Of a stretch of DNA of 64,000 nt, positions 1,422-15,419 are shown in pieces. A program made the position numbers and the translations under genes. This stretch comes from a virus. Location: the IMG/VR virus record IMGVR_UViG_3300042879_006196, positions 283,393 through 347,392 of that record; one strand, given 5' to 3'. Position 1 is the stretch's first letter. Each line of letters starts with the position of its first letter. Below the pieces are notes generated by a model. The model saw nothing but the letters and a program-made list of their open reading frames with translations. It was not told where the DNA came from and did not search any database.

Positions 1422-2296
1422 ATTTGTTCTAATCTTTCTCCCACAAGTGAAATTATGTCTTGCTCATATTTTACTACATATTCTTTCATTTTGTCATCTG
1501 AATCTAAATAATGCAAACAGCTTTTGATTGTTTTTTCTTCATTTTCTAGATTGTGTAACCATCTTCGCCAAGGAGCATTTTTTTCAATTTGTTCTAAGAA
1601 ATATGTTTTATCTTCAAGCTTTAAATTGTCAAAAATCACACTATTACTTATGTAAGTAAATTCAGGGGCGTAATTGTAAGCTGATATACCTAGATCGCAC
1701 AAGATTTTCAATTCTTCATCAGAATGAAAATCACAATTGTGTCTTTTCACTTTCACTTTATACTTTTCAGCTTTAGCCACGTAACATTTTGTTTTTTCAA
1801 TATCAATTGGCGAAATATTTTTACAATCAAAAACCACTGATCCTCCTTGGCACACAATATATTCAACTTTATCCAAAAAAGGTGTAATGTCGTTCAAAGC
1901 AATGTCAAACAACAATGTTGAAAATTTAGCAATAAAATCTTCTGTTCCAAATTCAAATTTTATATTTTTGTTAGCTTCAGTGAATTCATGCATCCATTTT
2001 ATACATTCTGAACTATAACGTCCAGAAAAGTACCAGGGATCTATATGAATCATATCAAATTTTTCAGCATCGAAGGCAATAATTTTTTTATCAAATTTTT
2101 CCATACAAAAATGATCTCTTTCAACTATTAGCTCAGATTTTAAGACTTGATCAATAATTGTTTTGCTTACATAACCATTTTCATGATTGAATTGCCGTTG
2201 TGAAAGAATAAAACCAATTGGTAATCCACTTTTTAAAATAGATTTAAGAATTGGTTCATTTACTGGAGATATAAATAGTTTAGGAAGTTTTTTCAT
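1406..2296 (-). CDS. Hypothetical protein in the glycan-biosynthesis locus
   Basis: 296-aa ORF tightly packed between the flanking locus genes. No confident motif. Confidence 0.4.
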   Translation of the reverse strand: MKKLPKLFISPVNEPILKSILKSGLPIGFILSQRQFNHENGYVSKTIIDQVLKSELIVERDHFCMEKFDKKIIAFDAEKFDMIHIDPWYFSGRYSSECIKWMHEFTEANKNIKFEFGTEDFIAKFSTLLFDIALNDITPFLDKVEYIVCQGGSVVFDCKNISPIDIEKTKCYVAKAEKYKVKVKRHNCDFHSDEELKILCDLGISAYNYAPEFTYISNSVIFDNLKLEDKTYFLEQIEKNAPWRRWLHNLENEEKTIKSCLHYLDSDDKMKEYVVKYEQDIISLVGERLEQICQIV

Positions 2297-2303
2297 TTGA
2301 TTT

Positions 2304-3842
2304 CTACTCGTTCATTGTCATAAGTTTATTTAAGTTGTACCAACCCATACAATAAAGCAATGTAGCTTCTTCACCTGTGTGTACTCCAGATGAAGATAAT
2401 TGTATTAGCGCCACTATAGTGTCAATAACATTCATGTTTATGTTTCTTTGTAAACAAAACGCCTCTAACGTTTTCATTAGTTCAAGATTTTTTTCTGGAG
2501 TTCCAGCATCAAAAAAACATTGATTGTTTTCAAGCTTCACATAAAATTTATTGTTTTTAATCGCTTCATGATCAAATATCAGATTGTGTTTCATTTTAGC
2601 AATATCATAATACCAATCACCTTTACTATTGCCAAAACCTTCTCTCCAATCAATTAAAATAAACCCTTCATTTGTTTTAATAACATTTTCAAAAACCAAA
2701 TCTCCATGAGCAATGCACTGTTGTGTTGGAAACTTTTCAAATAGTTCGCTTGCGATGTTTATAAGTTCCGATAAAGGTTTTACTTTTCTAAAGTTTATGT
2801 TTTGAATTTCAGAAAAATTGTTTTTTTTGTTTTTATGAAAGTTTTCTATTCTTTTGGAAGCTTTGTCAATGTAAAAATTTTTGAAAAAATTCAAACTAGT
2901 GTGTTTATATTTTTGCCATAAATTGTTTTCACACCAAATTAAAAAATTTTCAAGCAAATCTTGTGTTAATATTTTTGATAAAGTAATTCCCTTTACAAAA
3001 TTGTAGTAAATGAAATTATTTTTTGAATAACATTCAGGAGCACATGAAGATAACACCTTGCTTCTTTCATAAAGTTTTTTTACTTTTTCTTTATCACTGA
3101 AAAATTTAACAATTTTTTCATTAACATAATATGTTTCTTCATTCATTTTTGGCAACACGCAAATCTCTTGTTTGAATTGTTTTTGCGCACTTCTTAAAGC
3201 AATAAAATTACCAATATCTATCCAGTTTTTTGTTTCAACAAAGTCAATGTTCATTTGTTGAAGAATGTGTGCGTCAGATAAATTTTGTGTTTTATTTTTA
3301 TTCAATTCTTTTATTGTTAATTCTTTAAATAAATCTATATTTTCAATATAAGCCACACCTGTATAGCAAAATTCTCCCTCTTTGGCAGGCGTATCTTCGA
3401 TTTTTTTTGATTCATCATTCAATTCGCTTATTTTTCTATATTGGTTGCTTACAAATGTTTTTGAAAAAACGGCAAAATCATTACTTTTATGAGGCACATT
3501 TGAAATATAAGTATCACAAGCATTGTAATAAAAAGGTTTATCAATCACGTCGAATGTGCATGATAAAGAGTAAAGCAATGAAGATTGTGTGCTTTCATAG
3601 TCATCTACTTCAACAAATTCTATATTTAAATCAGAGTGGTTAATCTCAATATAATCTTTAACTTGCTCTTTTAAATACCCTAAAGTTATAATAAATTTTG
3701 AAGCTCCTGGATAACTATCAAATATGTGCGAAATTATAGCTTTATCGCCAAGTTTGATCAAAGCTTTGTTTAGGAAATCAGTAATTGGCTTCAATCTTGA
3801 ACCAGTTCCTGAGCAAGTAATTACCACGTCAAAATTTTTCAT
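2304..3842 (-). CDS. Two-domain sugar-phosphate/phosphocholine nucleotidyltransferase plus small-molecule kinase (LicC-like N-terminus, LicA/APH-like C-terminus)
   Basis: The N-terminus VVITCSGTGSRLKPIT is the G-x-G-x-R-L nucleotidyltransferase motif. The C-terminus HGDLVFENV...ILIDWREGFG resembles the Brenner motif and D-x-x-x-x-N of choline/aminoglycoside kinase-like folds. Confidence 0.6.
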   Translation of the reverse strand: MKNFDVVITCSGTGSRLKPITDFLNKALIKLGDKAIISHIFDSYPGASKFIITLGYLKEQVKDYIEINHSDLNIEFVEVDDYESTQSSLLYSLSCTFDVIDKPFYYNACDTYISNVPHKSNDFAVFSKTFVSNQYRKISELNDESKKIEDTPAKEGEFCYTGVAYIENIDLFKELTIKELNKNKTQNLSDAHILQQMNIDFVETKNWIDIGNFIALRSAQKQFKQEICVLPKMNEETYYVNEKIVKFFSDKEKVKKLYERSKVLSSCAPECYSKNNFIYYNFVKGITLSKILTQDLLENFLIWCENNLWQKYKHTSLNFFKNFYIDKASKRIENFHKNKKNNFSEIQNINFRKVKPLSELINIASELFEKFPTQQCIAHGDLVFENVIKTNEGFILIDWREGFGNSKGDWYYDIAKMKHNLIFDHEAIKNNKFYVKLENNQCFFDAGTPEKNLELMKTLEAFCLQRNINMNVIDTIVALIQLSSSGVHTGEEATLLYCMGWYNLNKLMTMNE

Positions 3843-3867
3843 TCATGCATATTATACATAAACTTCG

Positions 3868-4557
3868 ATGTACAATAAAATAATGATTGTAATTTGCACT
3901 CATAAAAGTCCAGATATTTTAGAAAGATTTTTATCTTCAATCAAAAACCATCAAACTGAAAATCATAAAATTTTGATTGTAGAAACATCTGATAGCCAAG
4001 ATTCTAAAGTTTTATCTGAAAAGTATCAATGCTTATTTTCAAATACAAATTTGAAATATGAAATTGGCGCTTATGTGCATGCAATTAATTTATATCCTGA
4101 TGAAGATGAATATTTTTTATTTCAAGACTCATTAGAAATAGTCAATGATAATTGGGAAGATAATTTCAGGAAATTGTCTCAAGGAGAAAAGCTTGTCACA
4201 TTGTGTGGATATTTTTTAAAAGATGATCCATGCCCTGGGTGCGGAGTTGAAGAATTTGAGTCGTTATTTAATTGTAAGTTTCCAACCGAAGAAGGCTATG
4301 CAGTGATGACGAATAGCTTTTATATTACACAATCTGCAAAACAAAAACTTAAAAATTTTGGTATTGATAGGTTATTTGCTCATGAAAAAAACGACACTTA
4401 TAAAACAGAAAGAATTTTAGGAGCAATGGCACACTATACTTGTGGTATAGCAGATTTATCAGAACTTTTAGGAAATTATATTTGGCAAGTAGATCAGTTT
4501 TTGCCTGGTTTTGGTTTTACAAAATTTATTTTAAAACATATCAGAAAAAGACAATGA
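3868..4557 (+). CDS. Putative glycosyltransferase (GT-A-like)
   Basis: The N-terminus IMIVICTHKSPDILERFLSSI resembles the start of a GT2 fold. It sits in the glycan locus and its stop overlaps the next start as ATGA. Confidence 0.4.
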   Translation: MYNKIMIVICTHKSPDILERFLSSIKNHQTENHKILIVETSDSQDSKVLSEKYQCLFSNTNLKYEIGAYVHAINLYPDEDEYFLFQDSLEIVNDNWEDNFRKLSQGEKLVTLCGYFLKDDPCPGCGVEEFESLFNCKFPTEEGYAVMTNSFYITQSAKQKLKNFGIDRLFAHEKNDTYKTERILGAMAHYTCGIADLSELLGNYIWQVDQFLPGFGFTKFILKHIRKRQ

Positions 4558-5693
4558 AAAATATAATCACAAGAAAAAATTGTTTAATTGATCAAAATGA
4601 AAATTTAGAAAATCTTCATGTATTTAAGAATGTTCCTGTCTTCATGGGTTGCGTAGACACTTGTCCAGAAGATGACCTTAAACATGACATGATTTGGCAA
4701 ATTGACAAAACTACAGGCTTTATACAATTGAAAGAATTAATTCCACTTGACATTCTGTATCCAGAAGCTCACAATGCAGGAGCTATAGGCAAAATATGGT
4801 CTGAACATCATCGCGCTTTTGCTAATTTTATCAGAAAAACAAATCCAAACCAAGTTTTGGAAATTGGTGGATCTCATGGAATTTTATATGAGAAATATTG
4901 TTCTGAAAAAACAATACCTTGGACAATTATAGATTTGAACCCTATTCCGATAGATAATTGTAAAGCTGTTTTCAAAAAAGATATTTTTGATGAAAATTTC
5001 GAATATGATGAAGATTTTGATTGTTTAATTCATAGTCATTTTTATGAACACATTTATGAACCAATGGCAATCATGAAAAAAATGGCATCTTTGATTAAAA
5101 AAGATAAAAAAATGATTTTTTCAGTACCAAACATGCAAAAAATGCTAGAAAAAAAATATAGTAATTGTTTAAATTTTGAACACACTTTCTTTTTGTCAGA
5201 ACCTTACACCGAATATTTATTATCATTATTTAATTTGAAAATATTAGAAAAAGAATATTTTTTAGAAGATCATAGCATTTTTTATTGCGTACAGCATGAT
5301 GAAAACTATGATATAATAGAATTGCCTAATGATTTGTATACTCACAATAAGAATGTTTTTGAAAGTTATGTTAACTATTACCAATCACTCATAATTGATA
5401 TAAATGAAAAAATTAAAAATTGTGGTCCAGAAAGCATATTTTTATTCGGTGCACATATTTTTTCACAAAACTTAATAATGTTTGGTCTCGATGTTTCAAA
5501 GATTCGCTGTATTATAGATAACGATGTAGCAAAGCAAGGCAAGAGGTTATATGGCACTCCTTTTGAAGTTTGCTCTCCAAATATTTTAAAAGATATTGAG
5601 AAACCTATAATAGTTTTGAAGGCTGGAGTATATAACGAAGAAATTAAAAACCAAATAAATGATCTTAACTCTGAAACACTTTTTTATGAATGA
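4554..5693 (+). CDS. Class I SAM-dependent methyltransferase
   Basis: VLEIGGSHGILYE matches methyltransferase motif I (E/D-x-G-x-G-x-G). The likely start is the ATG at 4554, which overlaps the upstream stop; the ORF-track start at 4440 is probably spurious. Confidence 0.55.
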   Translation: MKNIITRKNCLIDQNENLENLHVFKNVPVFMGCVDTCPEDDLKHDMIWQIDKTTGFIQLKELIPLDILYPEAHNAGAIGKIWSEHHRAFANFIRKTNPNQVLEIGGSHGILYEKYCSEKTIPWTIIDLNPIPIDNCKAVFKKDIFDENFEYDEDFDCLIHSHFYEHIYEPMAIMKKMASLIKKDKKMIFSVPNMQKMLEKKYSNCLNFEHTFFLSEPYTEYLLSLFNLKILEKEYFLEDHSIFYCVQHDENYDIIELPNDLYTHNKNVFESYVNYYQSLIIDINEKIKNCGPESIFLFGAHIFSQNLIMFGLDVSKIRCIIDNDVAKQGKRLYGTPFEVCSPNILKDIEKPIIVLKAGVYNEEIKNQINDLNSETLFYE

Positions 5694-6410
5694 TTAGACT
5701 CTACCAAATTGATCTTCATATCTTGTTATGTCATCTTCAGAGAATTTCTCTCCAGTTTGAATTTCAATAAAAATCAAATCTGTGTCTCCAGTGTTAACTA
5801 CTCTATGTTTTTCATTTTTTTTGACCTGACACACAGATCCTTTTTCAATTGGATGTTGATTATCTTCAAGAACAAAGATGCCATTCCCCTCAATAATTAA
5901 CCATAACTCATCACGATGCTGATGAGATTGTAAACTTGATGCTTTTCCTGGCAACACTTTTATTTCTTTCACGTGATATTTTTTATTATAAGCTAGAGTG
6001 GAAAAATTACCCCAAGGTCTTTCTTCACAAGGCTTGATTATTTTTTCAATTTCATCTTCAGTGATTCCATTTCTATTGGGAGTAAAACTGAAGGCTGTTT
6101 TCATGTTTGAGTTGGGCTTAAGATCATTAACAACAATTCTTTCACCTCTTCCGCAACCCATTACTAATTCATCATAAAATATATTTAACTTTCTTAATTG
6201 ATCTTCGGTTTGTTTTCTTGTTGAATTTCTTCTACCTGTCGTTAATACAATTTTAGCCCCGTTTTTTTCAATAGTATCTAAAAACTGCCTTGTCATCGTA
6301 ATCATTGATAAATTCTGGTCTGAAAGCTGTGCTCTAAGAGAACCATAATGCACCAATAGCACCCCATCTATGTCAAGAAAGTAAGTTTGTGTCATATAAT
6401 TGTTGTACAA
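5694..6410 (-). CDS. HAD-like hydrolase domain fused to a cupin domain (possible sugar-phosphate phosphatase/isomerase)
   Basis: The N-terminus YFLDIDGVLLV is HAD motif I (DxDG). The C-terminus HQHRDELWLIIEGNG...HRVVNTGD is a cupin two-His motif. Confidence 0.5.
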   Translation of the reverse strand: MYNNYMTQTYFLDIDGVLLVHYGSLRAQLSDQNLSMITMTRQFLDTIEKNGAKIVLTTGRRNSTRKQTEDQLRKLNIFYDELVMGCGRGERIVVNDLKPNSNMKTAFSFTPNRNGITEDEIEKIIKPCEERPWGNFSTLAYNKKYHVKEIKVLPGKASSLQSHQHRDELWLIIEGNGIFVLEDNQHPIEKGSVCQVKKNEKHRVVNTGDTDLIFIEIQTGEKFSEDDITRYEDQFGRV

Positions 6411-6417
6411 CTAATAG

Positions 6418-6960
6418 ATGCTTTGGGATTTAGCAATTAAAAACATTTGTAAAGAATCAAATTTAGTTTTAGAATTTGGCGTACACACAGGGAGCACAAT
6501 CACGTATTTTAGAAATAGACTACCTGCTTTTTATAATTTTTATGGATTTGATAGTTTTGAGGGTTTACCAGAAGATTGGACTGGAACAGATTTAGAAAAG
6601 GGATTTTTCAGTTTGAACGGAGAAGTGCCTGATATTGAAGGAGTTAATTTAGTAAAAGGTTGGTTCTCTGAAAGTTTACCTAAATGGCTTGAAGGACGTG
6701 AGCCTGAAAAAATTGCATTGCTACATATTGATTGTGATTTATATTCTAGCACAAAAACAGTTTTAGATAACCTCACTCATATGATTCAACCTGGCACTCT
6801 TATTTTATTTGACGAGTGGTTTTACCCAGCACCAGAAAAGTTGAATCAACATGAGCAAAAAGCATTTTTTGAATGGGTTTTAGCCAATCAAATCGATTTT
6901 ACTTTTATTGAAAGTAATTATCATGGCGATCAACCCAGAAAGCTAGTGAAGATTAAATAA
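6418..6960 (+). CDS. TylF/MycF-family O-methyltransferase (macrocin O-methyltransferase-like)
   Basis: LEFGVHTGSTI, DSFEGLPE and LLHIDCDLYSST...LILFDEW are the characteristic TylF-family blocks. Confidence 0.65.
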   Translation: MLWDLAIKNICKESNLVLEFGVHTGSTITYFRNRLPAFYNFYGFDSFEGLPEDWTGTDLEKGFFSLNGEVPDIEGVNLVKGWFSESLPKWLEGREPEKIALLHIDCDLYSSTKTVLDNLTHMIQPGTLILFDEWFYPAPEKLNQHEQKAFFEWVLANQIDFTFIESNYHGDQPRKLVKIK

Positions 6961-7825
6961 TCTTGCCGAATAATTCAACAAGATAATCTATATCAAAATA
7001 TTTATTATATGTGACATAAGGTTGCATCAAATAATAAATATATAGGTCTTTGTCGTTGTTAATTTCAATTACTTTATCTGCAAGTTCATCAAAATCTTTG
7101 AATGCTTTAACGTTAAGAAAACTTTCGCTATTAAAGTCATCATTAATCAAATCACTGCCCCAATAAATAGGAATACAATTTGCTATCATTGGTTCAAAAA
7201 TCTTTTCTGTAGTGTACCCTTTGTAGCCATTGAATTCATCATTGTTTTCAATAGCAAAGCAAAACTTGTATTGTCTAAGAAAATCAATTTTAGCTTGTGA
7301 TCCTGTAATGGCACCAGGCTCTCCTGGTATGACTGGGTGGTTGTTCATGTGTCTACCTGCACAGTCAACATGCATCCTGGTCAAAAAATGATTAACAATT
7401 GCTTCTCTGGGACATTTGCCACCCGCACCTTGTGAAATGTATGTAATCAGTTTAGATTTTTCATTTAAAATTTCTTTTGTGTAATCTCTTGTTAAAATTG
7501 ATTTATAAGATTTTGTTATTCCGAATTTCCATAAATCATAGGCATATAGCGGATACAAAGGTAGCCTTAAATGTGTCTCACTGTCCACATAAAATGAAGT
7601 AAGTGCATAATCACATGCGCCTGAGTTGAAAAAAGGCTCTCCGCTAAAATAGACAGCCTTAGCATTGCCATTTTTTTGGAAATTAGGTGAATCAGTGAAA
7701 ATAATATCAGGATTTTCACTTGTCACTTCTACGTCATGTGTTTGGCTTAAAACCCAAACAAAAAAGTTATCCTTCTTATCGAAGGTGCCCCAGAAACTAT
7801 CGAACCATACTTTTAATTTTTTCAT
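6953..7825 (-). CDS. GT10 alpha-1,3/4-fucosyltransferase
   Basis: FCFAIENN...GYTTEKIFEPMIANCIPIYWG closely matches the conserved alpha-1,3-fucosyltransferase motif of bacterial FucTs (FENS...GYVTEK...IPIYWG). Confidence 0.8.
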   Translation of the reverse strand: MKKLKVWFDSFWGTFDKKDNFFVWVLSQTHDVEVTSENPDIIFTDSPNFQKNGNAKAVYFSGEPFFNSGACDYALTSFYVDSETHLRLPLYPLYAYDLWKFGITKSYKSILTRDYTKEILNEKSKLITYISQGAGGKCPREAIVNHFLTRMHVDCAGRHMNNHPVIPGEPGAITGSQAKIDFLRQYKFCFAIENNDEFNGYKGYTTEKIFEPMIANCIPIYWGSDLINDDFNSESFLNVKAFKDFDELADKVIEINNDKDLYIYYLMQPYVTYNKYFDIDYLVELFGKII

Positions 7826-7827
7826 AT

Positions 7828-8457
7828 TTAATAAAACCCATTAACTATAATTGAAGGTGAGTCATCACAAGAACACACTGGAGGATAAACAGCATAAATC
7901 TTTTTATCACTCCTCATGATTACACCATCCGCTGTATTCATTTTTTTAACTTGCGATTCATAAAGATCACAAGCTATATTAGACGTTCTGATAACATAAG
8001 CTGAAGTTCCAGCTCTTGTATATTTATCAGTGTACGGACTTGCTAAATGCGGAGTAGTGTACAAATCACAATCAGCTGTGAACAATGCCAAAATATCATA
8101 ATCAGAATTTAAAGCAATTTCTAAATTTGATAATGTATTAAAAACAGAGTCGTCCTCTAAAATCAAACAATTACTTAAATTTTCATTAGCAATTATTTGA
8201 TAAATCAACATGTGTGCCAAAGCACAAGCAACTTGACCATCACTTAATGGATCAAGCAAAGGAATATCATTAGGTATACTTGGTAGATTATGTACGGCTA
8301 AGCCATCTTTAGAAACACAATTCAAACCTTGCATTACAAATTGACACAATCTATAATTTAAACCTTCCCATCTTTCATTAAATGCTTGAAATCTTTGAGA
8401 CTCAGGGTGAGCAATTACAAATACGTTTTCAAAATAATTATTGATTATATGATTCAT
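7828..8457 (-). CDS. Putative GT25-family LPS/LOS glycosyltransferase
   Basis: The N-terminal VFVIAHPESQRFQAF pattern resembles the GT25 family. It overlaps its neighbours as an operon would. Confidence 0.45.
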   Translation of the reverse strand: MNHIINNYFENVFVIAHPESQRFQAFNERWEGLNYRLCQFVMQGLNCVSKDGLAVHNLPSIPNDIPLLDPLSDGQVACALAHMLIYQIIANENLSNCLILEDDSVFNTLSNLEIALNSDYDILALFTADCDLYTTPHLASPYTDKYTRAGTSAYVIRTSNIACDLYESQVKKMNTADGVIMRSDKKIYAVYPPVCSCDDSPSIIVNGFY

Positions 8458-9164
8458 TGTTCACCGAAGTAATTATTATAAAAGTTTTTTACCAAATTTA
8501 ACGATTCTTTGCTCATTTCATTTAAAACATATTCTTTTTGTTTAAGAAATTTAACAGCAGAATGGGAATTCATAGTAAATTTATATTTACTCCTCACTCT
8601 TTTTGACCATTCAACATCTTCTGCCTCACCCCATATCAAATTTTCATTAAGCGGAAATTCTTGCATTACATTTTTTTTTGCCACCCAATAAAACCCAGGA
8701 ATGTACATAATTTTTGAAAACTCTTGATCATAAGGTAAGAGTTGTTCGGCATTTGGCAACTGATAATCTTGATAATAAACCAACCAATCTATATTTCTTT
8801 TTCCATCGAGATTGTGTACACGGTTCATGCACACTTGAAAGTCATTACCAAACTTTAAAAATCCTTCATACCAGCCATTTTCTAAAACAATATAATCATG
8901 CATTAAAACTATATTTTCATATTTTGCGTTTTCTACAATCAAATTTTTTTTCTTTGTGATCCATCCAGTTTTTTGTGTTTCGTCAAAATGAATATAATCA
9001 TCATAGAGGTTTTCACATAACCAATCTTTGTTCAAATTATCATAGATATCTCCAATGAATATTATTTGTTTATTTGGTATTTTCTGATTTTTAATTTGAT
9101 TATAAATAATTGGATGTAAGTGTTTATTTTCTTTAGTCACACAAATTCCAAAAGTAAAATCCAT
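8454..9164 (-). CDS. Hypothetical protein, possibly a glycosyltransferase, in the glycan locus
   Basis: 236-aa ORF co-oriented and overlapping with the GT25-like gene. No firm motif. Confidence 0.35.
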   Translation of the reverse strand: MDFTFGICVTKENKHLHPIIYNQIKNQKIPNKQIIFIGDIYDNLNKDWLCENLYDDYIHFDETQKTGWITKKKNLIVENAKYENIVLMHDYIVLENGWYEGFLKFGNDFQVCMNRVHNLDGKRNIDWLVYYQDYQLPNAEQLLPYDQEFSKIMYIPGFYWVAKKNVMQEFPLNENLIWGEAEDVEWSKRVRSKYKFTMNSHSAVKFLKQKEYVLNEMSKESLNLVKNFYNNYFGEQ

Positions 9165-9184
9165 TTACATATTGTACAATTTAC

Positions 9185-9814
9185 ATGATGAGCGAATTCT
9201 ACAGTCAATACGGTCAAGACCAATATATTTACGAAACTTTCTTCAAAAACAAAACGGACGGAGTATTTGTAGATATAGGAGCTTATGATGGAATAAAACT
9301 TTCTAATAGTTACTTTTTTGAAAAACTAGGTTGGACAGGTTTTTGTTTTGAGCCAGTAGATGACGCTTTTCAAAAATTAATATCGAATAGATCTCACTCT
9401 AAATGCTTTAACTGTGCAATTGGACATGAAAATAAAAAAGTACAATTCTTGAAAGTAGTTGGAAACGCAGATATGCTCAGTGGCGTATTAGATTATTATG
9501 ATGCAAATCATATGTTTAGAATAAACAAAGAAACTTATGAATCAAATGGAGAACAAATTGGAATTGAAGTTGAAATGTTCACGCTTGATCATTTCCTTCC
9601 TATAAATTCTCCAATTGATTATTTGTCAATTGATACTGAAGGTGGTGAATCTAAAATATTAAAAAATATTTTAGAAAATTTCAATCCAAAAATCATTTCT
9701 GTAGAAGTGAATTATGAAGCAGATTCAAAGAAACTTTTTGAAGTTCTTGACAAACAATATGAGGTAGTTAAAAATTTAGGATGCGATCTTATTTTAAAGG
9801 ATAAAAAATGGTAG
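9185..9814 (+). CDS. FkbM-family methyltransferase
   Basis: FVDIGAYDGIKLSNSYFF...GFCFEP...NCAIGHENKKVQF matches the FkbM methyltransferase signature. Confidence 0.6.
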   Translation: MMSEFYSQYGQDQYIYETFFKNKTDGVFVDIGAYDGIKLSNSYFFEKLGWTGFCFEPVDDAFQKLISNRSHSKCFNCAIGHENKKVQFLKVVGNADMLSGVLDYYDANHMFRINKETYESNGEQIGIEVEMFTLDHFLPINSPIDYLSIDTEGGESKILKNILENFNPKIISVEVNYEADSKKLFEVLDKQYEVVKNLGCDLILKDKKW

Positions 9815-10614
9815 TTACATATATAGAAGGCGGATTAGGCAACATGTTATTTCAACTTTGCTTCAGCTATGCTAAGGCAAAAGAAAATAACACGACATTT
9901 CATACATTGAATTATAGAGAAAATCTTGATATTATCAAGGATAAACATAAAGCTGATATTGAATCTTATGAAAAAACGATTCTCAGAAATTTCAGTATTT
10001 CTCCTCCTCCACTGCTGTATCAAGCACAAATTCAACATTTTTGCCCTTTTAATTTTGAAGAAATTCCTTATGAGCCAGATTGTTACAATTTGTATAAAGG
10101 GTATTTTCAATCAGAAAAGTATTTTGAAAAAAGCCAAGAAGATTTAGCACAAATTTTTCAACCAACCGAAGAAATCATTGACCACATGAAAGAAAAATAC
10201 CCTTTTCTTTTTACTTTAGATTGTGTGGCTTTGCACATTAGACGAGGAGATTATTTGCAATTACCAAATCATCATCCAATTGTTCCCACCGATCATTATC
10301 ATAAAGCATTAAAGAAACTTGGTGATTTTGAAAAAATCTTAGTGTTTACAAATGATATGGATTGGTGCTACAAGAATTTTGTAGAATCGCGAGCTATTTT
10401 CATTGAAGAGTCAGATTGGATGAGTTTATATCTTATGAGCTTTTGCACTAAGCATGTTATTGCTAATTCATCTTTTTCTTGGTGGGGTGCAAAATTAGCT
10501 GAGATGTTTTTCCCAGAAAAAAACATCGAAGTAGTTGCTCCTCCAGTGTGGTTTGGACCTGCTGTTGATGGCGATGAAAAAGATTTAGTTCCATCAAGAT
10601 GGATGAAAGTGTAA
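9808..10614 (+). CDS. GT11 alpha-1,2-fucosyltransferase
   Basis: GGLGNMLFQLCFSYAKAKE at the N-terminus and HIRRGDYL (the GT11 HxRRGD motif), plus the C-terminal block SFSWWGA. Confidence 0.8.
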   Translation: MVVTYIEGGLGNMLFQLCFSYAKAKENNTTFHTLNYRENLDIIKDKHKADIESYEKTILRNFSISPPPLLYQAQIQHFCPFNFEEIPYEPDCYNLYKGYFQSEKYFEKSQEDLAQIFQPTEEIIDHMKEKYPFLFTLDCVALHIRRGDYLQLPNHHPIVPTDHYHKALKKLGDFEKILVFTNDMDWCYKNFVESRAIFIEESDWMSLYLMSFCTKHVIANSSFSWWGAKLAEMFFPEKNIEVVAPPVWFGPAVDGDEKDLVPSRWMKV

Positions 10615-11258
10615 TGACTAAATTAGATTTGTTTAATAACACACATGTAATATCTTTAGCACATAGATTGGATAGAAGAAGTGTCATAGCTAAGCAATTT
10701 GAGTTATATCAAATTCCTTATTCTTTTTTTGATGCTATCAATGGACATGAATTAGATTATAATGGTCCGTTGTTAAAAGGCGAGGAGGGTGTAAGATTAT
10801 CACATATTGAGTTATTAAACAAATCAATCAAAAACAATGAAAAATCACTTTTTATTTTTGAAGATGATGTTGAGTTTTCAGAAAGCTTTAACGAAGATTT
10901 ACACAGAGCTTTAAATGTAGTTCCTGATAATTTTGATATGTTATATTTGGGGGCTTCACATCATCTAAAGCCAGAATTAGTAAAAGATAACTTATATAAA
11001 ATTTCACATTCTTACACCGCACATGCACTTTGTATAAAAAACAACCTTTTTGCACCACTCAGAGACACAATCTCAAACAATAAAAATTTACCAGTGGATG
11101 TAATTTATGCATTAGTTCAACCGCAAGTAAATGCATTTGCTATTTATCCACATCTTGCATGGCAATTCAACAGTTATTCAGACATACAAAACAAATTTGT
11201 TGATTATGAATTCCTTAAAAAAGAATTTGTTAGATTTGAAAATCAAACTATTCTTTGA
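10599..11258 (+). CDS. GT25-family glycosyltransferase
   Basis: THVISLAHRLDRRSVIAKQFELYQIPYSFFDAINGHE matches the GT25 N-terminal signature (VINL...RR...FFDAxDG). Confidence 0.6.
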   Translation: MDESVMTKLDLFNNTHVISLAHRLDRRSVIAKQFELYQIPYSFFDAINGHELDYNGPLLKGEEGVRLSHIELLNKSIKNNEKSLFIFEDDVEFSESFNEDLHRALNVVPDNFDMLYLGASHHLKPELVKDNLYKISHSYTAHALCIKNNLFAPLRDTISNNKNLPVDVIYALVQPQVNAFAIYPHLAWQFNSYSDIQNKFVDYEFLKKEFVRFENQTIL

Positions 11259-11878
11259 GCTTCCCAATTATGTTCTCTTGGCGCTAAATTCACAATATAT
11301 GTTGGAGAGTTCTGCATGAATTGGTATTGACACCCAGCATTTACGGCGTTCACAATAAATTCCCAATCATGACCATAATTTCTTGTGTGAGCTGGTAATT
11401 TTTTAACCATATCATTACTCACACATAATTCTGAATGCCCTATTTTGCTTGGGGCAAGCTCTGGAACTCTTAACTCAAGAATTCCATTACCTCTATCTAT
11501 ACTCGTGTTAAAAAGCCCAAAATCTTTTCCGCTTTTAGCAGACATCTCATAGTAAAGCTCAAAATGATTGTTGAAAATATTATCATCATTACTCAGAAAC
11601 ATAAAAAAATCACCAGTGCAATTTTTCATAGCGTAGTTAATTGCTTGACAAGAAGTGCCATCATGTGTGTCAAAGTTTTTAACAATCATTCTATCACCAA
11701 TAATTTTTTTAAAAAACGCAAAATCTTCACTTGCCACAATTTTATCAAAAACAGGGCATTTATCTCCTAAGAAAAAAAATTCATAGTCGTCTAAAGTTTG
11801 CAAACTTATAGAATTCAATAATCTAAGAGTAAGCATTTCTCTACCCCAACTTGGAAGAACTACACTTAATTTTGCCAT
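11243..11878 (-). CDS. GT2-family glycosyltransferase
   Basis: LSVVLPSWGREMLTLRLLNSISLQT resembles a GT-A N-terminal beta-strand followed by an acidic (DxD-like) region. Confidence 0.55.
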   Translation of the reverse strand: MAKLSVVLPSWGREMLTLRLLNSISLQTLDDYEFFFLGDKCPVFDKIVASEDFAFFKKIIGDRMIVKNFDTHDGTSCQAINYAMKNCTGDFFMFLSNDDNIFNNHFELYYEMSAKSGKDFGLFNTSIDRGNGILELRVPELAPSKIGHSELCVSNDMVKKLPAHTRNYGHDWEFIVNAVNAGCQYQFMQNSPTYIVNLAPREHNWEAQRIV

Positions 11879-11905
11879 TAAATTATTATACTGTAAAATA
11901 CATTC

Positions 11906-12841
11906 ATGATAAAACGAGAGTTCAAAAAAATTTTAGTTACAGGAGGGGCAGGATTTATTGGAAGTTATTTTGTTGATTTGTGCTTAGAAAAAAATATTTT
12001 TGTAATTAATTATGACGCATTAAAAACAGGAAGCATGCTTGAACATGGACCTCTTAAAAAACATCAAAATTATCATTTCATGCCATTTGATGTTTCAAAC
12101 CCACAATTAATTATTCCAGAAGACATTGAGGCAATTGTTCATTTTGCGGCTGAAACACATGTAGATAGAAGTGTAACAAACCCATTTTCATTTGTTCAAT
12201 CAAATGTTGTGGGGACATATAATCTTTTGGAAAAATGCAAAGACAAAAACATTTGGTTTCATTTAGTTTCTACTGATGAAGTGTATGGAGATATATGGGG
12301 AACAAAAAGGTCTACAGAAACTGATCCTATTAATTGCTCTTCTCCTTATTCTGCTACTAAGTCGGCCTCTGAGCAATTAGTTATTGCATATGGGCGCACC
12401 TATGGCTTAAAGTACACAATCACAAGAGGTTGCAACACTGTGGGTGGAAGACAGAACAACGAGAAATTAATTCCTAAATTTGTGTACAATGCTAAAAACA
12501 ATTTACCTTTGCCAGTTTATGGCAACGGAGAAGCAATTAGGCAGTACATTCATGTCACTGATCATGCAGAAGCAATTTACGCTGTTCTTACTAAAGGAAT
12601 GCTTAATAACATTTTTAATGTGGGCACAGATGCTAAGTTTTCAATTAATGAAATTGTTAATATCATAAAAGAATTTTATCCTAATTTAACTATCACAGAT
12701 AAAGAAAACAGACCTGGGCATGATCTGCGATATTGTATGAATTGTGGGCTCATTCAAGCCTGGGTAACATGGCAACCAAAAATAAAAGGCAAAGATATTA
12801 TTCTTAAATCTATTTCAGAATTGTGTAATTCTTACGTATAA
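11906..12841 (+). CDS. rmlB: dTDP-glucose 4,6-dehydratase-like NAD-dependent epimerase/dehydratase
   Basis: ILVTGGAGFIGS is the Rossmann GxxGxxG motif. YSATKSASEQL is the catalytic YxxxK. STDEVYG is conserved in 4,6-dehydratases. Confidence 0.8.
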   Translation: MIKREFKKILVTGGAGFIGSYFVDLCLEKNIFVINYDALKTGSMLEHGPLKKHQNYHFMPFDVSNPQLIIPEDIEAIVHFAAETHVDRSVTNPFSFVQSNVVGTYNLLEKCKDKNIWFHLVSTDEVYGDIWGTKRSTETDPINCSSPYSATKSASEQLVIAYGRTYGLKYTITRGCNTVGGRQNNEKLIPKFVYNAKNNLPLPVYGNGEAIRQYIHVTDHAEAIYAVLTKGMLNNIFNVGTDAKFSINEIVNIIKEFYPNLTITDKENRPGHDLRYCMNCGLIQAWVTWQPKIKGKDIILKSISELCNSYV

Positions 12842-12871
12842 TAAATATATCAATGAAAAAGGAGAAAAAAG

Positions 12872-13078
12872 ATGCAGACACAATTTTCAGGCTTAAGAGT
12901 TGGCTTAATGGTCAAAAACAAAAAAACATCCAAGAATTGGATGATAACAGATCTAATTACATCTTTTTCCTCTGTGAAAAAACAAATTCCTGACGAATTT
13001 AAGGTGCGTTTATCTAATGGTTCTGGAAAAACTTTAATCGTAACTGTTGATAATTTAAATAAAAACTACACCTGGTAA
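12872..13078 (+). CDS. Hypothetical small protein
   Basis: 68-aa ORF only. Confidence 0.25.
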   Translation: MQTQFSGLRVGLMVKNKKTSKNWMITDLITSFSSVKKQIPDEFKVRLSNGSGKTLIVTVDNLNKNYTW

Positions 13079-13084
13079 CCGCTT

Positions 13085-13483
13085 ATGCATTTAATAGACA
13101 AATCACATACAGAACATTTTAATTATTATGGTCCTTATCCCGCAAAACAAAAAACAAAAGATGGATATATATGGTATATGAATCGTGGGAATACTTATTT
13201 TTTAACTCATGATGGTTTAACTCGCAACATAGCTGATTTTTACTACAGAGAAGGTGGCTGGATACGTGAACCTATATCTGTCCAAGATTTAAGTGAAGCA
13301 AAATTTCCAGAAGGGTTTATATGCAAAGGCATTCCACCAGATTGTGCTAAAGGCACTCATACACAAGAATGGAATATTTTAGATTATCTTAACCATGAAT
13401 CAAGTACAGAGCTAATTGTTGATTTAATTATTACAGCACAAAAGATGATTAAAAATCAAGACAAAGAAACATCAAACATTTAA
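13085..13483 (+). CDS. Hypothetical protein
   Basis: 132-aa ORF. No motif. Confidence 0.3.
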   Translation: MHLIDKSHTEHFNYYGPYPAKQKTKDGYIWYMNRGNTYFLTHDGLTRNIADFYYREGGWIREPISVQDLSEAKFPEGFICKGIPPDCAKGTHTQEWNILDYLNHESSTELIVDLIITAQKMIKNQDKETSNI

Positions 13484-13557
13484 GTTTTCTCGTATAATAA
13501 TTATGTCAAAAAATTTTTCTTGTATTTGTTAAAATTTATTGATAATCGGTAAACATC

Positions 13558-14790
13558 ATGTCATTAATTGAAAAAGGAAAACTTAGAATTGAATGGGCAG
13601 CAAGAGAAATGCCTGTTCTTGAATCAATCTATCAAAAATTTCTCCAAGAACAACCTTTCACTGGGAAAAGTGTTGCTGCTTGTATGCATATCACCACTGA
13701 AACAGCAAATCTAATTAAAACTTTAGCTGCGGGAGGGGCTACAATTTATCTTTGTGCTTCCAATCCACTTTCTACACAAGATGACGTAGTTGAGGCTCTC
13801 AATTCTGAAGATAATATTCATGTATTTGCCAAACATGGTGATGACACTGAATCCTACTATTCTCATATCAAAAAAGTTTTGAGTTACAAGCCACATCTTG
13901 TTATGGATGATGGCTGCGATTTGGTCAATTATTTGTATACTCAAGAGCCACTTCTTTTAGAAAACGTAATTGGTGGAACCGAAGAAACTACTACAGGAGT
14001 TCAAAGACTCACTGCTATGGAAAAAGATGGCATTTTGAAATATCCAATTATTTGTGTTAATGATGCCCTCACAAAACATATGTTCGATAATCAGTATGGC
14101 ACAGGACAATCAACAATAGATGGTATTATACGTGCGACAAATATTCTTCTTGCTGGAAAAGTAGTGGTAGTGGCTGGGTATGGTTGGTGTGGAAAAGGTT
14201 TAGCTGCTAAAGCCAAAGGTATGGGCGCTAGAGTGGTTATTACTGAAGTGGATCCAATTAAAGCATTGCAAGCTCACATGGATGGATTTGATGTTTTAAC
14301 AATGGATGTAGCTTCTGCTTGTGGTGAAATATTCATTACTGTGACTGGTAACAAAAATGTTATTGACGTTAAACATTTCAAACAAATGAAAGATGGAGCA
14401 ATTTTATGCAATTCTGGTCATTTTGATTCTGAAATAAACATTAAAGGTTTAGAAGAATTTTCATTAAGCTTTAGACCTGTAAAAGATAATATAGAAGAAT
14501 ATACCTTAGAAGAAGGTAGAAAAATTTATGTACTTGGTGAAGGAAGGCTTGTAAATCTTGCGTGTGCAGAAGGACATCCGTCGTGCGTTATGGATATGTC
14601 TTTCGCTAACCAAGCTTTATGTGCACAATTTTTATGTGCAGATTCAAATTTGCAACCAGGCTTGTATACAGTGCCAGCGGATATTGATCAACTTGTTGCT
14701 GAACTTAAACTGCAATCCTTAGATTTGCAAATTGATGAACTTACTGAAGAGCAATTCAACTACATTAATAGCTGGCAAGAAGGCACTTAA
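13558..14790 (+). CDS. ahcY: S-adenosyl-L-homocysteine hydrolase (adenosylhomocysteinase)
   Basis: About 410 aa. EWAAREMPVL at the N-terminus, the NAD-binding VVVAGYGWCGKG motif, and HFDSEI/LVNLACAEGHPS are conserved AdoHcyase blocks. Confidence 0.9.
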   Translation: MSLIEKGKLRIEWAAREMPVLESIYQKFLQEQPFTGKSVAACMHITTETANLIKTLAAGGATIYLCASNPLSTQDDVVEALNSEDNIHVFAKHGDDTESYYSHIKKVLSYKPHLVMDDGCDLVNYLYTQEPLLLENVIGGTEETTTGVQRLTAMEKDGILKYPIICVNDALTKHMFDNQYGTGQSTIDGIIRATNILLAGKVVVVAGYGWCGKGLAAKAKGMGARVVITEVDPIKALQAHMDGFDVLTMDVASACGEIFITVTGNKNVIDVKHFKQMKDGAILCNSGHFDSEINIKGLEEFSLSFRPVKDNIEEYTLEEGRKIYVLGEGRLVNLACAEGHPSCVMDMSFANQALCAQFLCADSNLQPGLYTVPADIDQLVAELKLQSLDLQIDELTEEQFNYINSWQEGT

Positions 14791-14814
14791 TACAATACTA
14801 AAGAATAAAATATT

Positions 14815-15413: not shown

Positions 15414-15419
15414 TTATTC

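Follow-up and report, generated by a model that had tools for sequence, protein, structure and literature searches.

A glycan-biosynthesis island with GT10 and GT11 fucosyltransferase genes in a putative freshwater huge phage

Genes for a GT10 and a GT11 fucosyltransferase are present in a glycan-biosynthesis island of approximately 22 kb and 29 genes, which reaches about 9.2 kb beyond position 1 of the window (the whole 64-kb stretch of DNA analysed here). A preliminary description of this DNA had put the locus at 12 kb, which is true only of the part inside the window. The replicon looks like an uncultured freshwater huge phage and not a bacterium. Our overall explanation, advanced tentatively, is that the soluble enzymes of the island would make a fucosylated, methylated glycan, most likely on virion proteins.

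The two fucosyltransferases in the window

The GT10 protein, GT10a (positions 6953-7825, minus strand; 290 aa), matches the Pfam families Glyco_transf_10 (PF00852; 59.8 bits against a cutoff of 23.9, E 3.5e-16) and FucT_N (PF18025; 39 bits). The closest solved structure is that of H. pylori FucT, which GT10a matches at E 2.9e-18, and a fold search with the AF2 model (pLDDT 94.2) gave 2NZW as the best match (TM 0.77). Five residues are invariant in the alignment: E63, the catalytic Glu, and N194, Y204, E207 and K208, the GDP-fucose residues. Pfam profiles, catalytic residues and predicted fold thus agree on the GT10 assignment. Two of the motifs originally quoted for it, GYTTEK and IPIYWG, are found at residues 203 and 218, but the third, FENS, is not in the protein, the actual string at residues 192-195 being IENN. 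No TM segment was found in GT10a, and the chain stops at residue 290, directly past the catalytic domain, so that it is, as predicted from its sequence, a minimal soluble catalytic domain. This differs from the Helicobacter enzyme, which carries heptad repeats and a membrane(-binding) tail; the phage protein has neither. In every relative examined, GT10a is adjoined by the GT25 gene GT25a. By homology, this protein and the second GT10 of the island would transfer fucose with inversion and have a GT-B fold, with Glu63 as the base while Asn194, Tyr204, Glu207 and Lys208 would hold GDP-fucose.

The GT11 protein (9808-10614, plus strand; 268 aa) matches Glyco_transf_11 (Pfam PF01531) with 68.6 bits (cutoff 23.9, E 7e-19). 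It has 6053 homologues, and PF01531 is present in 120 of 120 among the matches listed. It carries the motifs HxRRGD and SFSWW; its invariant residues are G8, G9, N12, H143, R145, R146, G147, D148, N220, S221, S224, W225 and W226, and HIRRGDYL, quoted earlier as the GT11 signature, is indeed there, at residue 143. The AF2 model (pLDDT 95.1) has a NodZ/FUT8-type fold, its best matches being NodZ, FUT8, AtFUT1 and POFUT1/2. Here too, profile search, conserved catalytic residues and predicted fold agree, and the HxRRGD motif suggests by homology that this enzyme would likewise transfer fucose with inversion. No profile search placed the two ORFs outside the fucosyltransferase families, and both assignments stand.

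Gene content and recurrence of the island

The part of the island outside the window encodes the second GT10, a GDP-mannose 4,6-dehydratase (GMD; TIGR01472, 373.6 bits, cutoff 415), an Fcl-like protein (NF047922, 223.9 bits over the full length, cutoff 500), an RfbH-like enzyme (361 bits, cutoff 423) and further methyltransferases; a fusion of HAD and NTP-transferase domains is also encoded in the island. As these scores, and that of the RmlB-like protein below, do not reach the NCBI equivalog cutoffs, the exact products of the GMD, Fcl-like, RmlB-like and RfbH-like enzymes are uncertain. The occurrence of GMD and an Fcl-like GDP-fucose synthase in the same island supports the fucose reading of both transferases. 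Of 80 IMG/VR viral loci, 58 have GMD or Fcl no more than 10 kb from GT10; at bacterial GT10 loci, GMD is near in 3 of 80 and Fcl in 6 of 80.

Within the window, three consecutive genes on the minus strand encode conserved cassette members. The first (1-606; no Pfam match) runs beyond the window, which holds about 202 codons of its 307, and corresponds to positions 10816-11739 of contig L004, to which the window is 100% identical; its orthologues in L024, L032, L033, L035 and L036 are 51-71% identical. The second (606-1421; 271 aa; no Pfam or PDB match) is 66-79% identical to its orthologues in relatives and 41-51% identical to those in IMG/VR contigs. The third (1406-2296; 296 aa) has orthologues but no database match, and is broken into ORFs of 158 and 124 aa in the variant contig L006. 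They are followed by a 512-aa fusion (2304-3842, minus) of a LicC-like sugar/alcohol-phosphate nucleotidyltransferase and a C-terminal kinase-like domain. Its N-terminus matches Pfam NTP_transferase (E 3.6e-6), the N-terminal regions of the NCBIfam Arch_glmU, AglF and MurU models and, as the best PDB match, LicC (1JYK, E 6e-6); its C-terminal half has the motif HGDLxxxN..IDW and an APH match (E 0.016) below threshold. This fusion is a putative salvage "kinase + pyrophosphorylase". A weakly GT2-like (GT-A) protein (3868-4557, plus; 229 aa; Glycos_transf_2, 20 bits, E 7e-4) does not reach the Pfam cutoff of 23.3; it is conserved in relatives at 49-57% identity.

The remaining genes listed in the preliminary description were all confirmed. 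Its methyltransferases are a class-I enzyme with a C-terminal domain of the C-methyltransferase type (4554-5693, plus; 379 aa; Pfam Methyltransf_23, E 1e-10, and Methyltransf_14, E 7e-4), a TylF/Methyltransf_24-type sugar O-methyltransferase (6418-6960, plus; 180 aa; TylF, E 2e-12, and Methyltransf_24, E 6e-11) and an FkbM-family enzyme (9185-9814, plus; 209 aa; PF05050, E 1.6e-18; TIGR01444, 53.9 bits, above cutoff). The whole island has four or five: two of the TylF type, one FkbM and one or two of class I. The HAD-cupin protein (5694-6395, minus; 233 aa) joins a HAD phosphatase/mutase-like part to a type-II mannose-6-phosphate isomerase cupin (Pfam MannoseP_isomer, E 6e-25, Cupin_2 and HAD families; NCBIfam GMP_PMI, C-terminal region). 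Both GT25 enzymes, GT25a (7828-8457, minus; 209 aa; PF01755, 45.8 bits, E 9e-12) and GT25b (10599-11258, plus; 219 aa; PF01755, 67.9 bits, E 1.4e-18), are present, as is the GT2 (11243-11878, minus; 211 aa; PF00535, 25.8 bits, above the cutoff of 23.3), which also has weak WcaA and PglI N-terminal matches. The RmlB is best called an RmlB-like NDP-hexose 4,6-dehydratase (11906-12841, plus; 311 aa; TIGR01181, 307 bits, cutoff 365; also Pfam GDP_Man_Dehyd and Epimerase); its gene is accessory, the orthologue being missing from the more distant relatives (L032-L036). RmlC, a dTDP-4-dehydrorhamnose 3,5-epimerase (25733-26269, minus; 178 aa; TIGR01221, 184.5 bits, above the cutoff of 155.75; Pfam dTDP_sugar_isom, E 3e-55), lies 13 kb away from the island.

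Two further genes deserve mention. A 236-aa protein (8454-9164, minus) of an uncharacterised family, with a 48% identical paralogue in the island (L004 15143-15829), is a candidate GT-A-like transferase; a Pfam domain was found in 0 of its 383 homologues, a profile search gave no PDB match, and HHalign against GT2 proteins aligned only 27-40 N-terminal columns at a probability of 3-13%. An S-adenosylhomocysteine (SAH) hydrolase (13558-14790, plus; 410 aa; TIGR00936, 613.6 bits, cutoff 497.6; Pfam AdoHcyase) is missing from the relatives' loci; we infer from its position that it belongs to the island, where it probably clears SAH from the methyltransferases.

By homology, GMD and the Fcl-like reductase/epimerase would yield GDP-L-fucose, the island's own donor, and the type-II PMI cupin and the HAD-mutase/nucleotidyltransferase fusion plausibly supply this pathway from hexose phosphates. 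The RmlB-like, RmlC, RmlD-like and RfbH-like enzymes would make other 6-deoxy and 3,6-dideoxy hexoses. Two GT25, two GT2-type and several conserved proteins with no assigned family would complete the oligosaccharide, SAM methyltransferases would O-methylate it, and the adjacent SAH hydrolase would lift product inhibition.

Comparison across genomes, proposed in the preliminary description, revealed the same gene set in shuffled order in related contigs (GT10 54-62% identical) and in IMG/VR UViGs (L118-L124), including one of 232 kb.

Target of the glycan

Except for a Rossmann N-terminus, no hydrophobic 19-mer occurs in the island proteins checked, and all are predicted to be soluble. Pfam searches and the hydrophobicity check found no Wzx/flippase, Wzy/polymerase, ABC transporter, ligase or phosphoglycosyl (priming) transferase among the island genes. 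As the island apparently cannot prime, flip, polymerise or ligate a lipid-linked glycan, and as its enzyme set co-travels across diverged viruses, assembly on phage proteins appears most likely: the glycan would be built in the cytoplasm directly on phage-encoded (virion) proteins, and the particle would thus gain a fucosylated, methylated coat. We infer with considerable reservation that phage proteins are the target, in preference to remodelling of the host envelope.

The latter is a serious possibility, and only slightly less favored. The same soluble transferases might act on lipid-linked O-antigen, LOS or other intermediates at the cytoplasmic face, and host priming, flipping and ligation would export the fucosylated, methylated glycan. 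Characterised bacterial GT10, GT11 and GT25 enzymes use LPS, LOS or O-antigen intermediates, peripheral LOS transferases are also free of membrane segments, and the structure nearest to GT10a is an LPS fucosyltransferase of H. pylori. O-antigen sugars are classically made with RfbH-, RmlB-, RmlC- and RmlD-like genes, and the LicC-like fusion is reminiscent of LOS or teichoic-acid decoration. However, at least nine transferase-type genes with full donor pathways go far beyond the needs of known seroconversion modules, membrane components are entirely missing, GT10a lacks the membrane-binding tail, and the cassette is kept across diverged viruses from many habitats with presumably differing hosts and acceptors. 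Host-surface modification has been favored for similar cyanophage/cyanomyovirus and pelagiphage/pelagimyophage clusters, but without experiments (PMC9602691, PMC12801897, PMC7029224). If it occurred here, the surface would change in infection, for example excluding superinfecting phages or stopping progeny from adsorbing to debris.

Replicon identity and known systems

The contigs bearing the island measure 174-232 kb. Its context includes a tmRNA, DnaK, TnpB, a GH108 lysozyme, GatB, an aaRS and many ORFans, with PHROG matches to DprA, sigma and antiterminator proteins and a ClpP/head-protease match. Signal peptidase I and prepilin-like genes also occur there, and dNMP kinase, ThyX and a PurA/PurZ-like gene are close by. 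Neither the window nor its flanks showed a gene for capsid, portal or terminase, so that the case for a phage rests on this context.

The absence of those genes so far, the cellular-type genes (DnaK, tmRNA, GatB, aaRS, signal peptidase I, prepilin-like) and a gene content resembling a bacterial polysaccharide locus would suit a non-viral origin, namely a variable region for O-antigen, LOS or capsule in an AT-rich bacterial genome or on a megaplasmid. This is very improbable, as the export, polymerisation, ligation and priming genes are all missing, no bacterial genome has a GT10 above 39% identity, the best value in 185,579 species representatives, and no rRNA, tRNA or ribosomal-protein genes were found in the 64 kb plus flanks. 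The PHROG matches and the lysozyme, the contig sizes and the cassette's presence in viral contigs also argue against it, and huge phages are known to carry genes for tmRNA, chaperones and translation (PMC7162821, PMC12619734). Of the two settings considered originally, phage or bacterium, the former appears to apply.

Lewis- or H-type epitopes, as in Helicobacter mimicry, had also been proposed, with alpha-1,3 and alpha-1,2 linkages; these are extrapolations from family names, since family membership does not reveal linkage or acceptor. On that route, a GT25-type galactosyltransferase would make LacNAc for subsequent alpha-1,3 and alpha-1,2 fucosylation. In H. pylori, the GT25, GT10 and GT11 families do serve LacNAc galactosylation and Lewis fucosylation, and all three occur in the island alongside GDP-fucose synthesis genes. 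Nevertheless, such an epitope is very doubtful: host mimicry would be of no benefit in the freshwater from which these metagenomes come, no GlcNAc-transferase for LacNAc building was identified in the island, and the fut genes contain no phase-variable homopolymer (poly-C/poly-G) tracts. The methyltransferases and deoxy/dideoxy-sugar genes point, as far as gene content can tell, to a different, methylated glycan of bacterial or giant-virus style, and not to a mammalian mimic. It is equally doubtful that the glycan decorates phage DNA (hypermodified bases), a small molecule or a natural product: enzymes that would activate a base, such as a hydroxymethylase, were not found in the island or next to it, GT10 and GT11 have no known role in DNA modification, and polyketide, NRPS and aglycone genes are missing from the island by Pfam. 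In favor of this reading, dNMP kinase, ThyX and the PurA/PurZ-like gene are near, TylF and FkbM enzymes are typical of macrolide-sugar tailoring, and, according to Pyle 2024, as cited in PMC12619734, glycosyltransferases of phages can attach glycans to DNA as hypermodifications.

Sets of GT10, GT11 and GT25 have already been annotated in cyanomyoviruses, and the present island is a further member. Direct glycosylation of virion proteins, which we tentatively favor for this putative phage, would liken it to chloroviruses, mimiviruses and mycobacteriophages: the capsid glycans of PBCV-1 are made by its own glycosyltransferases and methyltransferases, CroV carries a 38-kb glyco cluster (PMC9614988), and mycobacteriophage virion glycans have been summarised (PMC12619734).

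GT10 and GT11 fucosyltransferases

The ORF at 6953-7825(-), referred to as GT10a, encodes a 290-aa protein carrying the Pfam domains PF00852 (Glyco_transf_10; 59.8 bits, cutoff 23.9, E 3.5e-16) and PF18025 (FucT_N; 39 bits, cutoff 27.2), the former being present in 78 of 78 GT10a homologues among the matches listed. Its best PDB sequence match is the alpha-1,3-fucosyltransferase (FucT) of Helicobacter pylori (E 2.9e-18), and residues E63, N194, Y204, E207 and K208 of GT10a align to E95, N240, Y246, E249 and K250 of that enzyme. In the Helicobacter enzyme Glu95 is the catalytic residue, and Asn240, Tyr246, Glu249 and Lys250 are the ligands of GDP-fucose. None of the five GT10a residues varies among 45 aligned homologues (30-62% identity), and R140, the putative counterpart of H. 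pylori R195, is conserved at 90% or more. The AlphaFold (AF2) model of GT10a (pLDDT 94.2) retrieved H. pylori FucT as the first Foldseek match (E 6e-17, TM 0.77), and ranks 1 to 18 were all GT10 enzymes, including human FUT9, mango FucT13 and Arabidopsis FUT11. H. pylori FucT/FutA, an alpha-1,3/4-fucosyltransferase (PDB 2NZW, 2NZX, 2NZY and 5ZOI) and the best match in both sequence and fold, thus shares the GT-B fold and the FucT_N domain with GT10a, but the identity is only ~23%, and whereas the Helicobacter enzyme has C-terminal heptad repeats and a basic/amphipathic membrane tail, the phage protein is a bare catalytic domain whose chain terminates directly after it, with neither heptad repeats nor a membrane-binding tail.

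GT11 (9808-10614(+), 268 aa) matches PF01531 (Glyco_transf_11) at 68.6 bits (cutoff 23.9, E 7e-19) over residues 94-231, corresponding to profile positions 124-266 of 298. It has 6053 homologues, and PF01531 was found in all 120 examined among the matches listed. In an alignment of 46 sequences, three motifs contain invariant residues: HxRRGD (H143, R145, R146, G147, D148), NSSFSWW (N220, S221, S224, W225, W226) and the N-terminal GGLGN (G8, G9, N12). No PDB relative was detectable by sequence search, and no GT11 structure was among the Foldseek/PDB matches of the AF2 model (pLDDT 95.1). The first 31 Foldseek ranks were all fucosyltransferases (NodZ, FUT8, AtFUT1, POFUT1), with POFUT2 a few ranks below (E 1e-6 to 3e-4, TM ~0.5). 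The predicted fold is therefore that of the GDP-fucose-dependent alpha-2/alpha-6/O-fucosyltransferase superfamily.

The preliminary description had assigned these two ORFs to GT10 and GT11 from their motifs. Profile and fold evidence place both in these families rather than in others: GT10 by its Pfam domains, invariant residues and GT10 fold matches, and GT11 by PF01531, its invariant motifs and the superfamily fold. Among the motifs quoted, HIRRGDYL of GT11 is literally present, as are GYTTEK and IPIYWG of GT10a, but "FENS" is absent, the protein reading IENN.

The glycan-biosynthesis island and its relatives

Both genes are embedded in a cluster of glycan-biosynthesis genes (the island), and every other gene named in the preliminary description was recovered with Pfam and NCBIfam. 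These are two GT25 genes (Pfam; GT25a, 7828-8457(-), and GT25b, 10599-11258(+)), a GT2 gene (Pfam; 11243-11878(-)), methyltransferases of the TylF type (6418-6960(+)), the FkbM type (9185-9814(+)) and class I (4554-5693(+)), a fusion of HAD and PMI-cupin domains (5694-6395(-)), an RmlB-like dehydratase (11906-12841(+)) and RmlC (25733-26269(-)). A bona fide S-adenosylhomocysteine (SAH) hydrolase gene (13558-14790(+), ~613 bits) lies directly after this methyltransferase-rich island and is missing from the loci of more distant relatives.

Seven conserved island proteins have no Pfam family, and for the family-less proteins neither a PDB search nor a Pfam search relaxed to E 5 returned anything credible. 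One of them, the 236-aa product of 8454-9164(-), has a 48% identical paralogue beyond the window (15143-15829(-) on L004, a metagenome locus 100% identical to the window that carries the rest of the island). Their family, with 383 metagenomic homologues, has no Pfam domain and no PDB relative. Invariant throughout are HDY, an N-terminal FxFGI and the E-D pair in a conserved stretch reading WGEGEDVEW, which in the window protein is WGEAEDVEW. HHalign comparison with the island GT2 proteins aligned only 27-40 N-terminal columns, at a probability of 3-13%. It could be an undescribed glycosyltransferase family of the GT-A type.

The window is 100% identical to the 174-kb metagenome contig Ga0453733_0000010, and its proteins recur in dozens of assemblies, on contigs of up to 231.7 kb. 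The island extends ~9.2 kb past window position 1. The gene order there starts at the window edge with the remainder of a 307-aa protein without a family, followed by a second GT10 gene, GT10b (270 aa; PF00852, E 5e-11), whose product is 29% identical to GT10a and retains IEN..YFTEK..IPIYWG; a DUF8361 protein; an RfbH-like PLP 3-dehydratase (361 bits); an RmlD-like reductase; the paralogue of the 236-aa protein; a 262-aa protein without a family; a second TylF methyltransferase; an Fcl-like GDP-fucose synthase (L004 17349-18251; full length, NF047922, 223.9 bits, cutoff 500); GDP-mannose 4,6-dehydratase (GMD; L004 18248-19213; TIGR01472 gmd, 373.6 bits, cutoff 415); and, last, a fusion of a beta-phosphoglucomutase-type HAD domain with a sugar-1-phosphate nucleotidyltransferase. 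As only unrelated ORFs follow this fusion, the island comprises ~22 kb and ~29 genes, or ~24 kb when the SAH hydrolase gene is counted. The genes of the "12-kb locus" of the preliminary description are thus real, but its extent is not, the cluster being cut by the window edge.

With GMD and the Fcl-like enzyme in the island, the donor pathway for both fucosyltransferases is probably encoded on site. No other feature of the context supports the fucose reading as strongly, and the gene context supports GDP-L-fucose as the probable donor of GT10a. The GMD and Fcl models are the best families for the respective proteins, both of which score under the NCBI cutoffs, and the Fcl-like reductase could yield a different 6-deoxyhexose. 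Because GMD and the Fcl-like, RmlB-like and RfbH-like proteins all score somewhat under their NCBI equivalog cutoffs, the exact sugars are uncertain.

The island is ~99% coding. There are eight strand changes across 12.8 kb (window 606-12841), with intergenic gaps of -16 to +30 bp, and divergent gene starts in this interval are separated by about 20-27 bp. With gaps this small, the island promoters must lie within neighbouring coding sequence. The GC content is 30.0%, against 32.7% in the remaining window, and because it matches its surroundings in this way the island is not a recent import. No membrane segments were predicted in the island proteins checked, and Pfam searches and membrane-segment prediction found no priming phosphoglycosyl transferase, flippase, polymerase, ABC exporter or ligase in the island. 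In a variant contig that is otherwise identical (L006 9143-10016, equivalent to window 1406-2296), a 296-aa ORF is split into ORFs of 158 and 124 aa, which suggests population-level inactivation of one cassette gene.

The preliminary description had proposed comparing the locus across related genomes; its core order is kept in closer relatives, while accessory genes vary and distant contigs are shuffled. In relatives with a 54-62% identical GT10, the core runs FkbM, GT11, the 236-aa protein, GT25, GT10, methyltransferase and HAD-cupin, then methyltransferase, GT2-like, NTP-transferase/kinase, three family-less proteins, second GT10 and DUF8361. Among these relatives GMD and Fcl change position, RfbH, RmlD, RmlB and SAH hydrolase are variably present, and in one the GT11 slot is occupied by an unrelated ORF. 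In more distant IMG/VR contigs the families recur but their order is shuffled, and GT11 is often present twice. At least 499 GT10 relatives occur on IMG/VR viral contigs, among them contigs (L118-L124, one of 232 kb) that bear the same cassette. GMD or Fcl neighbours GT10 in 58 of 80 viral loci, whereas the neighbours in bacterial GT10 loci include GT11 in 2, GMD in 3 and Fcl in 6 of 80. Genes for TnpB (OrfB_IS605/Cas12f-like) occur in the window at 33782-34999(+) and 58037-59200(-), in the right flank (L117 17736-19136) and in two relatives, within the glycan island in one (L032 11672-12937) and at its edge in the other (L035 17175-18275), so TnpB may drive island shuffling.

The replicon and its host

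We conclude from its gene context that the replicon is probably a huge phage. The 64-kb window (~31% GC) has no rRNA or tRNA genes, and carries a full-length tmRNA gene (38142-38526(+); Rfam RF00023, 108 bits) and a complete Hsp70/DnaK gene (50325-52205(-), 781 bits); a GroEL-type chaperonin (L024 17747-19366(-); Cpn60_TCP1, E 5e-68) is present in a relative, 75% identical, whose contig measures 239.5 kb. To the right of the window (L117) are genes for GatB, the aspartyl/glutamyl-tRNA amidotransferase subunit B, and a class-Ib aminoacyl-tRNA synthetase (12357-13805 and 14436-15632), together with many small ORFans. Translation, chaperone and tmRNA genes are established traits of huge phages (PMC7162821; PMC12619734). 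The window also encodes a GH108 lysozyme, ThyX (29083-29919(+)), a Y-family (ImpB/UmuC-type) DNA polymerase (32479-33702(+)), a radical-SAM activase-like protein (Fer4_12; 35034-35642(+)), a DprA-like protein (22617-23132(-); phrog_768, E 4e-62) and a ClpP-like homologue of head-maturation proteases (41382-41957(+); phrog_94, E 4e-46) directly followed by a LAGLIDADG homing endonuclease (42032-43153(+)), and further PHROG matches include sigma factors and an antiterminator. Adjoining thyX, a short adenylosuccinate-synthetase-like protein (28105-29064(+), 319 aa) scores ~250 bits against PurA models (cutoff 402) and 104 bits against PurZ (cutoff 300), and may be either a truncated PurA or a PurZ-like protein (2-aminoadenine DNA).

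A huge phage would be expected to have a genome of at least 200 kb and virion hallmark genes. PHROG and Pfam searches of the large unannotated ORFs (e.g., 45658-49789) detected neither a capsid nor a portal nor a terminase, whether in the window or in the flanks, and the assignment to a huge phage therefore remains contextual. In tblastn searches of phage records, an 834-aa ORF had no match and a 941-aa ORF one weak match, to a Listeria phage; megablast of window positions 1-13000 against 50,697 phage records gave none. No GTDB representative bacterial genome encodes a GT10 more than 39% identical, and the nearest bacterial relatives, at 39% or less, are scattered over Verrucomicrobiota, Hyphomicrobiales, Bacteroidota and others.

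A possible hint towards a host in the PVC superphylum comes from a 343-aa protein with a prepilin-type N-terminal methylation motif (weak match to "Verru_Chthon cassette protein D"), secretin-N-like proteins and a signal peptidase I (Peptidase_S26, E 7e-23), a group of genes at 24211-25242(+), 23220-23789(+), 39096-39590(+) and L117 16226-17101. However, this Verrucomicrobia-type hint conflicts with the ORF at 48353-49789, which resembles freshwater cyanophage proteins; cyanobacterial signature genes were not seen in the window. The tmRNA tag predicted by ARAGORN, AKKNRRNGFGSAQAGFAMVA, ends in an unusual ...AMVA and is uninformative as to the host.

Proposed function and comparison with known systems

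From the predicted enzymes, a series of reactions may be proposed. The donor enzymes would supply GDP-fucose and 6-deoxy-, possibly 3,6-dideoxy-, hexoses, with a LicC-like/kinase fusion providing a further donor-side product. Two GT10 enzymes and one GT11 would perform inverting fucosyl transfer, while the GT25, GT2-type and family-less proteins would carry out the remaining glycosyl transfers. Four or five methyltransferases would O-methylate the product with SAM, and the SAH hydrolase beside the island would remove the resulting SAH. This enzyme-level description, common to glycosylation of the virion and of the host envelope, is very probably correct.

With at least nine transferase-type genes and all donors supplied, the island looks designed to build a glycan de novo rather than to tailor an existing one. 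Because the gene set is of this type, lacks functions for a lipid-linked start or for export, and is shared as a unit across diverged viruses, we tentatively favour direct glycosylation of phage proteins in the cytoplasm, the glycan being placed on what we infer to be the virion coat. Virion protein glycosylation has been demonstrated in chloroviruses and mimiviruses (PMC9614988) and, as summarised in PMC12619734, in mycobacteriophages. The main rival, remodelling of host envelope glycans by way of the host's own lipid-carrier machinery, is quite possible, and is the reading offered, without experiment, in the cyanophage and pelagiphage literature (PMC9602691, PMC7029224, PMC12801897).

The preliminary description had also proposed that the two fucosyltransferases build Lewis- or H-type epitopes as in Helicobacter. 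This is very improbable, even though the island encodes all three of GT25, GT10 and GT11. These are families used by Helicobacter, where a GlcNAc-transferase and a galactosyltransferase build LacNAc, the fut genes are phase-variable and the glycan is assembled on a lipid carrier by WecA, Wzk and WaaL. Neither linkage nor acceptor can be read from family membership, however, and the island has no identified GlcNAc-transferase, no lipid-carrier enzymes and no heptad-repeat tail on GT10a. Moreover, the methyltransferase and dideoxy-sugar genes predict a methylated, non-mammalian glycan, and mimicry would be of no obvious use to a freshwater phage. Helicobacter-style phase variation is also rejected, as the GT10a and GT11 genes contain no C/G homopolymer of 6 or more and no A/T homopolymer of 8 or more.

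Seroconversion modules of temperate phages comprise a membrane GtrA flippase, a GtrB bactoprenol glucosyltransferase and a serotype-specific Gtr, or O-acetylases; a GtrABC-type module was rejected, there being no membrane segment in the checked island proteins and no Gtr-type Pfam match. A bacterial O-antigen, LOS or capsule cluster was rejected on the lack of TM proteins and of Wzx, Wzy, ABC and priming families, on GT10 identities of 39% or less in GTDB and on the phage-like context, and DNA glycosylation is set aside because no base-hydroxymethylase and no known DNA-glycosyltransferase family was found.

Stated in full, the virion-coat reading holds that a widespread lineage of large aquatic phages carries a self-contained, giant-virus-like factory (enzymes for donor synthesis, four or five methyltransferases of sugars and at least nine transferases, several of which belong to families with no relative in Pfam or the PDB) that coats its own virion proteins with a fucosylated, O-methylated glycan; this whole is possible but rather doubtful. 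Sugar clusters of large aquatic phages are routinely labelled as "host cell-wall modification" without evidence, and the island is one such cluster, compact, complete and conserved across many viruses. Its predicted GDP-fucose pathway, two GT10 enzymes and single GT11, its lack of membrane machinery and its seven family-less proteins open the question of the target to direct test: are the glycans of big bacteriophages meant for their own particles, as in giant viruses, or for the surface of the host? If the virion is the target, autonomous virion glycosylation, so far a trait of actinobacteriophages and of the giant viruses of eukaryotes, would be extended to the huge phages that infect aquatic bacteria, and there would be several new glycosyltransferase families; if it is ordinary host-surface tailoring, one more uncultured lineage would be added to a known phenomenon. 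The soluble GT10 and GT11 enzymes are small, at 290 and 268 aa, and like the family-less cassette proteins they are candidates for new fucosyltransferase or glycosyltransferase tools.

Among known systems, giant viruses, namely chlorovirus PBCV-1 (GMD/GMER, A064R, A061L, A075L), the Megavirinae with their fibril clusters and CroV with its 38-kb cluster, have autonomous glycosylation machinery and, like the island, encode nucleotide-sugar synthesis, soluble glycosyltransferases and O-methyltransferases for sugars in gene clusters that are specific to each clade; mimiviruses and Solivirus also have GT10-fold proteins. These clusters make fucose- and rhamnose-containing methylated glycans on virion proteins (PMC9614988; PMC10117803), an attachment that is proven there but only inferred for the island. 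Giant viruses infect eukaryotes, whereas this replicon has bacterial-type genes (tmRNA, TnpB, sigma factors, GH108), and the resemblance is functional, not ancestral. In actinobacteriophages, as summarised in PMC12619734, soluble phage glycosyltransferases act in the cytoplasm on subunits of the capsid and tail tube and need no lipid carrier. In these systems ~2-4 glycosyltransferase genes lie beside structural genes, with no donor synthesis and in Gram-positive, high-GC hosts, in contrast to the ~29 genes here. The bacterial GT11 enzymes FutC, WbgL and WbsJ share the Pfam family and the HxRRGD and SFSWW motifs with the phage GT11, and a prophage futC makes 2'-fucosyllactose in vitro (PMC12748750); unlike these, the closest homologues of the phage protein among the matches listed are all uncharacterised metagenomic proteins.

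The "Cell wall synthesis and modification" gene sets of the cyanomyoviruses S-SCSM2R, S-SCSM1, P-SSM2 and S-SKS1 are comparable to the island, the functions in both cases being predicted ones. S-SCSM2R is annotated with GT10, two GT11, GT25, GT2, RmlC and NDP-sugar epimerases (PMC12801897, 2025), and S-SCSM1 with GMD, GDP-fucose synthase (Fcl) and three fucosyltransferase types, alpha-1,2-FucT, NodZ and POFUT-like (PMC9602691). In tblastn searches, GT11 had matches of 32-35% identity in 103 GenBank phage records, mostly Synechococcus phages, and GT10 had matches in only 3 records of phage isolates (S-SKS1 at 32%); GT11 is thus common in cyanomyoviruses, whereas GT10 is rare among isolates but common in IMG/VR. 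The cyanomyovirus sets have no nucleotide similarity to the island and protein identities of at most 35%, and the island differs from them in being one compact unit of ~22 kb with fused enzymes, four or five methyltransferases, an adjoining SAH hydrolase and seven conserved proteins without Pfam families. It is an unusually complete case of the already known phage sugar clusters, from an uncharacterised phage lineage.
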